A stretch of 64,000 nucleotides of DNA from positions 32,001-96,000 of IMG/VR virus record IMGVR_UViG_3300028392_000038. One strand, given 5' to 3'. The notes beneath the pieces were generated by a model. It ran no database searches, was not told the origin of the DNA, and saw only the letters and a program-made list of their open reading frames with translations. A program made the translations under genes and the position numbers. The stretch is from a virus. This document shows positions 31,260 through 40,576 of this stretch, one piece after another (the stretch's first letter is position 1; each line of letters opens with the position of its first letter).

Positions 31260-31291
31260 AAAAACCCTCTGATTAATCAGAGGGTTTTTTT
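31260..31291. terminator. Bidirectional intrinsic terminator
   Basis: Perfect palindrome AAAAACCCTCTGATTAATCAGAGGGTTTTT between convergent genes. Confidence 0.9.
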
Positions 31292-32060
31292 ATTTTTTAA
31301 AATTATCTGAATAGGTAAAATTAGCATTTAAGTTTGGCTGAGTAGGTTTATCATTCACAGGAACCTCAATATTTTTAAATTTTTCTTCAACTTCTTTTGG
31401 GTTACAGTATTTAGGATTCATTACTACAACCATATCATAATTCAAAGGTTCTGAGCTTAATATCTTTGGGTCTCCTGTTTTTATCCAAATATAATCACTT
31501 TCTTTGAATAAATGTTGATATACACTTTTTTTAACTTCTGGACTAGACCCGCTCTCACTTACTATATATCCAACATTTGGATCATCTAATAAAGCTCTAT
31601 AAACTTTATAACCAAAATGCTCAATGTCTAATGTCGGTAGATTTTCACCTTTTGAACCTTCAAATCCTGTTTCTTGATTTGGTTCGTATTTTTGACCACC
31701 TGGTTTTTTCCCATGATACCAATGTATTTGATTTTTAGGAGTCAATATAATATAGTTCATATTCTTCCAAACTTCCCAAGCAGTTGTATCAGCAGTCCAT
31801 TCATACTTAGTGTATTGATTATCGCGGTTAGTCTCTAATCCTTTGTACCAGAATGATTGCATAGAACCAGGTTCACCCATTTTATGATCTTTCATTTTTT
31901 TCATAACACTGATACCTTCCTCGTCATTAAAAAATATATCAAAAGATTTTGCACCAGGTTCACTTACACCACGTTTATCTTTTGATAACAAAACAGATAC
32001 CTCCTTATATTTAGCTTCTGTAATTAATATAAATTGTTCATATAACTTTAAGTATTTCAT
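31290..32060 (-). CDS. Hypothetical protein
   Basis: Leader MKYLKLYEQFILITE. Confidence 0.7.
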   Translation of the reverse strand: MKYLKLYEQFILITEAKYKEVSVLLSKDKRGVSEPGAKSFDIFFNDEEGISVMKKMKDHKMGEPGSMQSFWYKGLETNRDNQYTKYEWTADTTAWEVWKNMNYIILTPKNQIHWYHGKKPGGQKYEPNQETGFEGSKGENLPTLDIEHFGYKVYRALLDDPNVGYIVSESGSSPEVKKSVYQHLFKESDYIWIKTGDPKILSSEPLNYDMVVVMNPKYCNPKEVEEKFKNIEVPVNDKPTQPNLNANFTYSDNFKK

Positions 32061-35063: not shown

Positions 35064-35582
35064 ATGATTTTGAAAGAAAAAAGAAAACATAAAATAAACG
35101 GAGAAGTTCGCTTTCCTCAAGTTAGAGTTATAGGTGATGATGAACCAATACTGATGAGTTCATATGATGCATTTCAATTAGCCAAATCACAAAATAAAGA
35201 TATTATTTTAATAAATGAAAATCAAACAATACCTATTGTTAAAATAGAACAGTATAATAAATTCCTTTATAACTTAGAAAAATCCGAAAAAGAAAAGAAA
35301 AAGAATTCAGTAAAGTCTGTTACTAAAGAAATTCAATTAAGTCCTGAAATATCTGACAATGACCTGGGTACCAAATCCAGAAAAAGTAAAGAGTTTTTAG
35401 AAGATGGTAATAAGGTTAAAGTTGTTTTACAATTAAAAGGTAGACAAAAGGCTTCTCCAGAAAGAGGTCAAATAGTTATGCTTAAATTTTTTACATTAGT
35501 TGAAGAACTTGGTGTTGCTGAAAGTCTTCCTAAATTAGAAGGAAGTAAATGGCATATGATGATTAAGCCAAAGAAGAAGTAG
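35064..35582 (+). CDS. infC: Translation initiation factor IF-3
   Basis: ING.VRFPQVRVIG, P.VKI..Y.KFLY, KEIQLSP.I..NDL.TK..FL.DGNKVKV..KGR, PKLEG. Confidence 0.93.
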   Translation: MILKEKRKHKINGEVRFPQVRVIGDDEPILMSSYDAFQLAKSQNKDIILINENQTIPIVKIEQYNKFLYNLEKSEKEKKKNSVKSVTKEIQLSPEISDNDLGTKSRKSKEFLEDGNKVKVVLQLKGRQKASPERGQIVMLKFFTLVEELGVAESLPKLEGSKWHMMIKPKKK

Positions 35583-35625: not shown

Positions 35626-37103
35626 ATGACTAAAGAAGAAAAAATTAAAAAGATAGAGTCATTAAGGAAACAAGCGACAGAGTTAAAAAAAGAGGTAGAC
35701 TATTTTAATGCCCTCCAATTAGCCTTGAAGTTGGTACTTAATGGTTCTTATTTTTTACCCCCTATTTTGAAAAGAATAGGGGGGAAGATTAAGGAGCATT
35801 TGCAACAAGCTACTTCATATTATATAATAATCACGTAGCAGGTACAATCACAGCACAAGGCCGTGACCTTACCAAAACAATGGATAAGGTTAATGAAGAC
35901 TATTGGTATAATCAATGGCAAAATGACCATGAACTTCACTATAAAATGGGTATTAAAAACATAACACCTATTTCAAAAGATGAACATGTTTCTATTTATG
36001 CTGATACAGATTCATTATTTGTTTCATTCAAACCAGCAGTAGATCATTGTGACTGGACCAATCTTATATTCAATGATGATTATCTTAATTCAGTAGATAA
36101 AAAGTTCATCATCCTTTCTAAAGAACTTCCAAAATTCAACAATACTAATTGTGTAGGAACTGCGCATAATATTAAAGAGTTTAGTGAACTATTAAACGCA
36201 GAACATGAGTTAGTTTTAATATGTGGTAACTTTGTTAAAGATAGAGATTTAGTAAAGATGATTAAATCTGGTTCTGTAAAGAATGAGATAAAATGGAATT
36301 GGTCTAATGAAATAGATTTCATACAAGGATTAGACCATTATAGATATGGTGGTTATTTTAAAAAGTGTTTAGAAGATTATGCTGGATCTTTTGGTGTAGA
36401 GAACAAAGAAGACTTTGAGTTAGAAAGAATATCAGAATCTATTATCAATATTGCTAAAAAGAAATACATTCAACATATCTTATTTGAAGATGGTATTCCT
36501 TATGATAGATTAAGTTATATCTATCCTAAAGGTGTAGAACTTGTTAGGTCATCTACTCCAGCTTTTGCTAGAGATAAAATTGTTGGTATTGTTAAATATT
36601 TATTCACACATCCTGATACTTTTAATATTAAAGATTTACTAAAACTAGTTAAAGGACTAAGAAAAGAATTTGAATTGGCGGATATAGATGATATTTGTAT
36701 GCAATCTTCTGTTTCTAACTATGAAATAAAAGTTCTTAATGATAAGTCATTGCCTTTAAACTTTATAAGTGGTGCTCACTTTGCGGTTAAGTCAGCAGCT
36801 CATCATAACTATCTTTTACTAAAGAGTAAAGAATATCAACAGAAATATGAGTTTATAAAATCAGGTAATAAGATTAAATATTATTGTTGTAAAGATAAAT
36901 CTATAACTGATATGTTTGCTTATACTCGTGGTTCTTTTCCGGTTGAGTTTGCTCCACCTATTGATTATGATGAACAGTTCTCTAAGTCTATCTTATCTCC
37001 TATCAATTCAATTATTGAACCATTAGGAATGCCTGAGATTACTAAAAGGTTGTCGGTGGTGATGGATATTTTCTCAGGTATGGGTGGAAAAGGAGCTTTT
37101 TAA
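35626..37103 (+). CDS. Family B DNA polymerase, C-terminal subunit (gp43B-like), interrupted by a 41-nt insertion
   Basis: 35626-35751 ends QLALKLVLNGSY; frame resumes at 35793 GAFATSYFILYNNHVAGTITAQGR, then YADTDS (motif C), AKKKY, KGVELVRSSTP; no exonuclease domain or motif A in the window. Confidence 0.88.
35752..35792 (+). other. 41-nt hairpin insertion (coding gap) in PolB motif B
   Basis: TTTTTACCCCCTATTTT-GAAA-AGAATAGGGGGGAAGATTAA; removing it restores TAT GGA (YG). Confidence 0.85.
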
Positions 37104-39662: not shown

Positions 39663-39692
39663 AAAAAACCCACTCAATTGAGTGGGTTTTTT
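39661..39692. terminator. Bidirectional intrinsic terminator
   Basis: AAAAAACCCACTCAATTGAGTGGGTTTTTT. Confidence 0.9.
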
Positions 39693-40102: not shown

Positions 40103-40576
40103 ATGAGATTAATAAGAATACTAAAATTTCTATATACATCAGAACATCCACACTTCTTATCAGTAGATAAAGACTTTTACTCCAGGTGGAAATTGATTAT
40201 CAGAGGAACAGTAACACTAAATAAAAATTATAAATCATGTGAGATTTATAGAAAGAAATACAAAATGATGGAAGATTTTGTAGTTATTGGACTTAAATAC
40301 AATGGTAAAAATGTTAAAAGAAGAACTAGCGGATACGCTAAAGAATTTATAGAACAACACAAAGACGCGAAATGTCTTTACTGTGAAACTAAACTAAATG
40401 ATAGAAATGCTACAGCAGACCATATAGTTCCAATATCTGATGGTGGTAATAACTGTCAAGTTAACTTAATAGTTTGTTGTAAGGATTGTAATAATGAAAG
40501 AGGTAATATAGAATTCAAAACTTATATTTCAATGAAAAATAAGAAATATAAAAATATAAATAAATTGTTTATTTAA
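40103..40576 (+). CDS. HNH endonuclease
   Basis: CLYC..TADHIVPIS.GG.N...NL..CC..CN..RG. Confidence 0.88.
   Translation: MRLIRILKFLYTSEHPHFLSVDKDFYSRWKLIIRGTVTLNKNYKSCEIYRKKYKMMEDFVVIGLKYNGKNVKRRTSGYAKEFIEQHKDAKCLYCETKLNDRNATADHIVPISDGGNNCQVNLIVCCKDCNNERGNIEFKTYISMKNKKYKNINKLFI

Follow-up and report, generated by a model that had tools for sequence, protein, structure and literature searches.

A hairpin insert in DNA polymerase motif B of a huge freshwater phage, a candidate translational bypass cassette

The 64,000-nucleotide (nt) stretch of DNA analysed here (the window; positions 32,001 to 96,000 of IMG/VR virus record IMGVR_UViG_3300028392_000038) comes from a huge, uncultured, freshwater phage. 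Its gene for the C-terminal subunit of a family B DNA polymerase (PolB) carries a 41-nt insert, at 35752-35792, which separates the Tyr and Gly codons of PolB motif B. The insert belongs to a large and varied family of hairpin elements in related phages, whose features follow the reading frame of the interrupted gene, which are linked to a homing endonuclease gene and which reside in a polymerase gene under purifying selection. The arrangement suggests, with a probability of roughly 0.6, that the window insert is a member of a family of translational bypass cassettes similar in kind to that of T4 gene 60, which would have arisen independently in a split PolB. From this arrangement we infer the hop of the ribosome over the gap, the efficiency of that hop and an immunity function of the cassette.

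The insert in PolB motif B and its relatives

The virus record to which the window belongs has a length of 115,972 bp and a G+C content of 30%, and is estimated to be 49% complete; its nearest named relatives are uncultured phages of 630-735 kb, Lak phages being more distant. The upstream frame of the polymerase gene runs from the ATG at 35626 for 42 codons, ending in ..LALKLVLNGSY with the codon TAT at 35749-51, past which it continues out of register to the TAG at 35836-38 to give an open reading frame (ORF) of 70 amino acids (aa). The downstream frame begins with GGA at 35793, directly after a TAA at 35790-92, and continues for 436 codons to 37103; its product matches Pfam DNA_pol_B (PF00136, E 4.9e-13) and reads from GAFATSYF.. 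through motif C, YADTDS. The huge phages LR756502 and LR745206 (75-76% aa identity) share the same gene start and read TAT GGA GCA without interruption, so the window has exactly 41 extra bases, whose boundaries are unable to slide. The preliminary description had placed a 41-nt insert exactly between Y and G of motif B, and these uninterrupted relatives bear it out.

Scanning IMG/VR and JGI/ENA metagenome contigs with the downstream protein yielded 149 further loci; from these, two GenBank loci and the window, 147 loci were scored, and the family counts given below refer to distinct sequences, not independent events. The gene is uninterrupted in 81 loci and interrupted in 66 by 44 distinct elements of 36-48 nt, which occupy six insertion positions within the ~30 nt encoding A-L-K-L-V-L-N-G-S-Y-G (six distinct elements after Ala9, 15 after Leu10, three after Val13, two after Gly16, one after Ser17 and 17, including that of the window, after Tyr18). 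All 44 fold as hairpins of 9-16 bp with a C-run first and a G-run last, and 29 have tetraloops, among them 15 GNRA loops and one UUCG. Inner stem positions are occupied by 4-6 pair types, including G-U, and compensatory changes are present, indicating that structure and not sequence is conserved and that the element is an RNA structure. Inserts with covarying stems in related polymerase genes, which had been proposed as a check, are therefore present as 44 distinct hairpins at six nearby codons. An assembly or sequencing artefact is hardly credible, since 65 further contigs, assembled independently and drawn from many samples, carry homologous inserts, some of them identical across samples (e.g. 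L018, L137 and L140, or L019, L141 and L142; L numbers denote loci). The closest relative of the window element, found in locus L151 of a different lineage, aligns with it base for base.

Several features of the family are bound to the reading frame. In 34 of the 44 elements, bases 1-2 of the last translated codon recur in codon register directly before the point at which decoding resumes, and in all 34 the triplet concerned is the first one after the hairpin to match in this way. The resulting pairs of proposed take-off and landing codons (CTT>CTA, GCT>GCA/GCT, GTT>GTA/GTT, TCT>TCA, GGT>GGT and TAT>TAC/TAT) are identical or synonymous in 32/44 elements, the other two matches being TAT/TAA. 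The take-off codon usually ends in U and the landing codon in A or C, a direction in which a tRNA with U34 or G34 would wobble-pair at take-off and form a Watson-Crick pair at landing. A stop in the upstream frame lies 0-1 codon into the gap in 35/44 elements, compared with 0 and 1 for the other two frames. The spacer from the last translated codon to the C-run measures 6 nt in 34/44, while the 3' spacer ranges between roughly 4 and 15 nt; 6 nt separate the end of the 3'-arm G-run from the UAA in the window, and 4-10 nt separate it from the landing codon in 33/44 elements. The 42-residue leader is conserved alike in interrupted and uninterrupted genes, with modest shifts such as Ser at -13 (71% vs 9%). 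A five-base sequence adjoining the C-run on its 5' side, TTAAC in L015, L025, L107 and L124 and TTAGC in L018, recurs directly before the resume codon, with the A or G changing in concert at both positions.

Gap lengths modulo 3 are distributed 11/18/15, every gap divisible by 3 contains stops, and L043 differs from L044/L045 by one G in the gap (42 vs 41 nt), although the 1,000 nt compared beyond the gap are the same in these genes; the difference reflects natural length variation or else a homopolymer error in sequencing. Gaps of all length classes, the stops in the in-frame gaps and this 1-nt indel indicate that frameshifting or read-through is not a general solution. A programmed -1 or +1 frameshift does not account for the window copy, where the downstream frame is closed by the TAA at 35790-92; a slip on the T-run meets this codon, as had been foreseen for a -1 slip, and the gaps of the family fall in all modulo-3 classes. 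Translation of the insert, with a -1 shift after the TAA adding about 14 residues between Tyr and Gly, is very improbable: the upstream frame is open through the gap to 35836 in the window copy alone, but no slippery heptamer lies between 35793 and 35836, the added residues would separate the invariant Y and G of motif B, and the relatives' gaps, with their stops and every length class, would leave the family unexplained. Internal re-initiation after the hairpin is rejected, as no in-frame ATG, GTG or TTG occurs at 35793-35880 in the window copy and the frequent ATG in the tails of site-10 elements is out of frame.

In the window, the segment 35740-35800 folds with a free energy of -33.2 kcal/mol, compared with -17.1 +/- 3.2 kcal/mol for 200 shuffles (z -4.97, no shuffle as good), confirming the earlier account of a hairpin with a GAAA loop and a helix extended by flanking coding bases. 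Between the Gly-Ser and Gly-Ala codons, site-18 elements form 3.9 of 5 helix-closing pairs, barely above the 3.4 of uninterrupted genes, and no claim is made that the closing helix evolved for these elements. Even with up to 3 mismatches allowed, the window contains no second copy of the 26-nt hairpin, a search of IMG/VR gave no exact copy, and the 116-kb contig has just one other C5/G5 hairpin, a convergent intergenic terminator, which argues against a repeat family within the genome. A search of Rfam 15 at E up to 1 returned two chance-level matches far below gathering scores, and no curated covariance model of a group I or group II intron or other catalogued RNA element matched. Nor is the hairpin an intrinsic terminator, since its tail is GAAGAT with no T-run after the hairpin, and a terminator scan called none at 35758-35783. 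Its stem resembles the intergenic terminators found throughout the same genome, many of which (e.g. window 31260-31289 and 39663-39692) are bidirectional, with the order A-run, CCC-stem, loop, GGG-stem, T-run. The resemblance of terminator stems to the polymerase hairpins of relatives suggests that the PolB gaps may derive from captured terminators. No tRNA gene that could explain landing was found in the window.

Linkage to a homing endonuclease and the allele mosaic

Interrupted loci usually carry a divergent ORF of 260-390 aa, 60-90 nt upstream of the polymerase start, which matches Pfam DUF7487 as well as PHROG families that bear a homing endonuclease annotation. Among loci with enough flank, a profile built from ten such ORFs detected the endonuclease gene upstream of the polymerase gene in 39 of 60 that are interrupted, compared with 1 of 64 that are not (Fisher 1.4e-15, uncorrected for relatedness). 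In the endonuclease tree two clades are well supported, one mainly with elements at sites 16-18 and the other mainly with elements at sites 9-13, and the insertion site tracks the endonuclease clade, with 9 label changes compared with 14.1 for shuffled labels. A tblastn search with the endonuclease against phage records gave 34 matches, comprising huge-phage records (Lak, uncultured) and LIMEstone-type nucleases (F-LimVIII), with no T4 records among the 34. A homing-endonuclease cassette, which lay outside the view of the preliminary description, is the likely reason for the insert.

The window copy is an orphan element: no endonuclease gene was found upstream of its polymerase gene, where the IF-3 gene lies 43 nt away. 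This IF-3 is phage-encoded, full-length (IF3_N and IF3_C) and directly upstream of the polymerase C-half; its DNA matches 52 related loci, and in many uninterrupted relatives the upstream neighbour is a plus-strand ORF of ~175-185 aa. Elsewhere, an HNH endonuclease ORF (PF14279/PF01844) is located at window 40103-40576, 3 kb downstream of the polymerase gene, and beyond the window, ~64 kb upstream, there is a short DUF7487 ORF (G000:C1:3028-3168, G000 being the whole 116-kb contig); neither is adjacent to the gap.

Sibling strains carry alternative alleles of this region. L005/L074 and L006 match the window at 95-99% identity across IF-3, the polymerase gene downstream of 35789 and the next gene (L005 and L006 97-99% downstream of 35789), and between IF-3 and motif B they have an endonuclease gene, a ~75%-identical 5' polymerase segment and a 40-nt hairpin at site 9, with no insert at site 18. 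In L006 the DUF7487 endonuclease ORF between IF-3 and the polymerase gene encodes 375 aa. Pairs of loci that differ in the presence or absence of the element at 95-99% identity are also found (L123/L124, L136/L020 and L016/L018). Such an allele mosaic is the outcome produced by homing with co-conversion.

Translational bypass and the alternatives

Passages of a survey of gene 60 (bioRxiv 10.1101/2022.08.31.505936) describe, for the gene and its homologues, take-off and landing codons that match or differ at the wobble base, a hungry codon or a stop, a tetraloop hairpin maintained by compensatory changes, and a mobile endonuclease that may be lost while the gap stays. The PolB elements display the same kinds of features (codon pairs, stop, compensated tetraloop hairpin, mobile endonuclease and gaps without endonuclease), which favours bypassing. 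In the proposed mechanism, a mobile homing-endonuclease cassette would target the DNA encoding PolB motif B in a clade of huge phages, leaving the 41 bases behind as a coding gap, and the hairpin insert, after the precedent of T4 MobA and gene 60, may disrupt the nuclease target and thereby protect the carrier genome. The ribosome would translate 42 codons and stall with peptidyl-tRNA-Tyr on the UAU at 35749-51, once its mRNA entry site meets the G-C clamp with which the hairpin begins 6 nt further on. The tRNA would then unpair, the ribosome would slide past the hairpin, and the tRNA would re-pair on the first matching triplet 3' of it, in the window the near-cognate UAA at 35790-92, with decoding resuming at GGA 35793 to restore ..NGSY-GAF... 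The fixed 6-nt spacer would put the G-C clamp at the mRNA entry site while the take-off codon occupies the P site, suggesting that take-off may be triggered by a roadblock.

Several points weigh against this reading. The hop is deduced for every family member from sequence design alone, in most elements a single sense codon intervenes between take-off codon and stop, a difference from gene 60, and the dinucleotide repeat could partly be the scar of insertion at a staggered cut. Shine-Dalgarno motifs precede 3/121 genes of the whole contig (121 ORFs), compared with a background of 6.7%, so that the mini-Shine-Dalgarno landing aid of gene 60 may not apply in this genome, and landing guided by such a motif finds no support in the translation signals of the genome's own genes. 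The near-absence of these motifs and the A/T-rich leaders fit a Bacteroidota-type host.

The window copy departs further from the pattern. After UAU it reads UUU UUA, with TTA where L151 has TAG, and the first in-frame stop follows 28 codons on, at 35836, leaving the gap itself without one; the landing triplet is UAA where L151 has TAC, and UAA is not a Tyr codon, although two of three bases match. The missing stop and the inexact UAU/UAA match had both been noted beforehand and are confirmed for this copy; as traits of the family they do not hold, since a stop is present in 35/44 elements and the repeat in 34/44. At site 18, a Tyr triplet (TAC/TAT) stands at the landing position in just 5/17 elements, the others having AAC (6), AAT, GAC, AGC, CAA and UAA (2), so codon re-pairing cannot be the entire landing rule at this site. 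By eye, the landing triplets of solo site-18 elements do not differ clearly from those of endonuclease-linked ones. In addition, the cognate in-frame UAC at 35811-13, 21 nt further on, could capture hopping ribosomes, with the deletion of seven residues (GAFATSY). A tentative variant is that the PolB hairpins represent a second, independently evolved ribosome-hopping system, in which site-18 members resume at GGA without a cognate landing codon, and the window also without a stop, landing being set by mRNA structure or position and not by tRNA re-pairing.

Excision at the RNA level, with the hairpin acting as a protein-dependent mini-intron that is cut out before the exons are ligated and translated, appears unlikely. 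In-frame stops directly inside the 5' end are typical of phage introns too, which takes something from bypassing and is in keeping with excision, as are the position of the junctions at the base of a closed helix in the window copy and the 12/17 site-18 elements, including the two with UAA, that lack a Tyr landing triplet, which a splice does not need. However, the element is a mere 9-16-bp hairpin with no group I, group II or other Rfam match, no bulge-helix-bulge is present, and the stems are too short for RNase III. The distance from hairpin to 3' junction varies, whereas the 5' spacer is fixed relative to the codon; the repeat always falls at codon positions 1-2 at all six sites, and stops are confined to the zero frame (35/0/1). 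Splicing has no reason to respect the frame, and the frame-bound repeats and stops therefore count against it. The preliminary description had left the choice between an unconventional recoding and an excision element; that view is supported, and the in-frame stops and codon-register repeats favour bypass over splicing.

A further possibility, judged rather improbable, is that the window copy is a dead or dying allele, which after loss of the endonuclease also lost its stop and cognate landing codon, so that no polymerase is made and the phage is defective or depends on co-infecting relatives. Its two departures from consensus (TTA for the stop, UAA for UAY), the lack of a nearby endonuclease gene and the contig's 49% completeness, which leaves room for a second copy, would agree with such a fate. 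Against it, both coding segments are intact, and the window is 98.2% identical to L005 at the nt level, with 23 nt differences but 1 aa difference over 436 codons, indicating that the polymerase gene is under purifying selection and upholding the earlier remark that the rest of the gene shows no decay. The window hairpin is likewise intact and unusually stable, a UAA landing triplet also occurs in L042/L057, non-cognate triplets stand in 12/17 site-18 elements with intact genes, and the early stop is missing in other members too (L037, L064, L067, L130 and L070-73). Complete relatives also have a single C-half: the 98%-complete, insert-bearing genomes G001 and G002, as well as LR756502, encode one N-half and one C-half of PolB, >100 kb apart. 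No PolA or DnaE was found in G001 and G002, and a second polymerase is thus not supported; together with the purifying selection, this indicates that the phages need the gene. The 116-kb contig of the window has one PolB C-half, and the N-half is not on it. With its stop-less gap and near-cognate landing triplet, the window copy may be regarded as a natural minimal variant of the proposed bypass cassette.

The same gene holds further selfish elements in relatives, namely an in-frame intein in motif C of L060 (L060:3001-4794) and, in L043-45, an apparent split intein in motif C, whose N-part ends at TAA with a new ATG 30 nt later (L043:3500-3700). L062 and L066-L068 lack ~80 residues after motif C relative to window 35990-36250, a variable insertion in the palm/thumb region. 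The coordinates of the locus are given in Table 1.

Table 1. Features of the interrupted polymerase locus, in window positions
Feature	Position	Strand	Basis
IF-3 gene, upstream neighbour	35064..35582	+	Pfam IF3_C 1.8e-25, IF3_N 5e-15
PolB C-terminal subunit, first coding segment, 42 codons, ..KLVLNGSY	35626..35751	+	Start and peptide same in relatives
Proposed take-off codon UAU (motif B Tyr)	35749..35751	+	Last codon matching uninterrupted relatives; C-run 6 nt downstream
41-nt putative coding gap: 6-nt spacer, hairpin, 6-nt tail, landing triplet	35752..35792	+	Missing from 81 related loci; homologous to site-18 elements
Core hairpin, C5/G5 clamp, 11 bp, GAAA tetraloop 35769-35772	35758..35783	+	Folding
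Extended irregular helix; Gly-Ser-Tyr codons pair with tail, landing triplet and Gly-Ala codons	35740..35800	+	Minimum free energy and centroid structure
Proposed landing triplet UAA; also the stop closing the downstream frame at its 5' side	35790..35792	+	First two bases match tRNA-Tyr (near-cognate)
PolB C-terminal subunit, second coding segment, GAFATSYF.. through YADTDS to stop	35793..37103	+	PF00136
First fully cognate Tyr codon UAC 3' of the hairpin, downstream frame	35811..35813	+	Read from sequence
TAG ending the non-bypass 70-aa product	35836..35838	+	ORF reading

Comparison with known systems and significance

The PolB cassette probably works like gene 60 without being homologous to it. 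According to passages of Manning and Atkins (bioRxiv 10.1101/2022.08.31.505936), T4 gene 60 contains a 50-nt bypass within a MobA homing-endonuclease element and has homologues in Myoviridae topoisomerase genes. Both systems split an essential replication gene after a short leader (33-42 codons in the PolB family, 46 in T4); the gap spans tens of nt, begins with a stop and has a stable tetraloop hairpin beside the take-off codon, and the proposed take-off and landing codons are identical or wobble-base variants. Both have an adjacent free-standing homing endonuclease gene, with some copies retaining the gap without the endonuclease, and in both the hairpin resembles the phage's own terminator hairpins. 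However, the PolB elements target polymerase motif B and not a topoisomerase, their endonuclease belongs to the DUF7487 family, with no T4 record among its 34 tblastn matches, and they occupy six insertion positions compared with one (+/-1 codon). The PolB hairpin begins 6 nt after the take-off codon rather than containing it, one sense codon usually precedes the stop, and the genome lacks Shine-Dalgarno usage. Many site-18 copies, including that of the window, have no cognate landing triplet, and the PolB family is known from sequence alone.

Other systems share parts of this design. The byps of Magnusiomyces mitochondria, attributed to Lang et al. in 2014 and Nosek et al. in 2015, are reportedly programmed translational bypassing elements, G+C-rich hairpin inserts of 27-55 nt that are said to lie in an A+T-rich genome in any frame. 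Their take-off triplet reportedly matches the landing triplet and is followed by a stop or unassigned codon, and they probably derive from mobile G+C clusters. Like the PolB elements they are short hairpin inserts that interrupt protein genes between matching triplets; unlike them they are numerous over many genes, whereas the PolB hairpins occupy one site region in one gene per genome and are linked to a homing endonuclease. The homing-endonuclease introns and inteins of phage polymerase genes are similarly selfish, home into the most conserved motifs and must leave the product, but the 41-nt hairpin has no ribozyme core or Rfam match, and, not being in frame, it cannot be an intein. A full-text literature search found bypass cassettes just in T4-type topoisomerase genes, a candidate in Streptomyces phages and the mitochondrial byps, and nothing on bypass in polymerase genes of huge phages.

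Efficient long-range bypassing has one bench-proven bacterial example, T4 gene 60, whose homologues are all in one gene with one endonuclease family, and passages of the 2022 survey still term that cassette unique. If the interpretation as a bypass cassette is correct, the PolB elements would add an unrelated family in a different essential gene, and their 44 natural variants, which differ in site, gap length, loop, stop position and the presence of a cognate landing codon, would provide the recoding field with a comparative series usable to test which signals are required. To this series the window adds a natural minimal variant and a sibling-strain pair with alternative alleles, and should landing be set by mRNA structure or position, bypass would here follow a new mechanism. 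Such polymerase genes are split or thrown out by gene callers, so that annotations of huge phages under-report the replicative polymerase. More broadly, the combination of an endonuclease with an untranslatable gap would be a recurrent strategy of selfish DNA.

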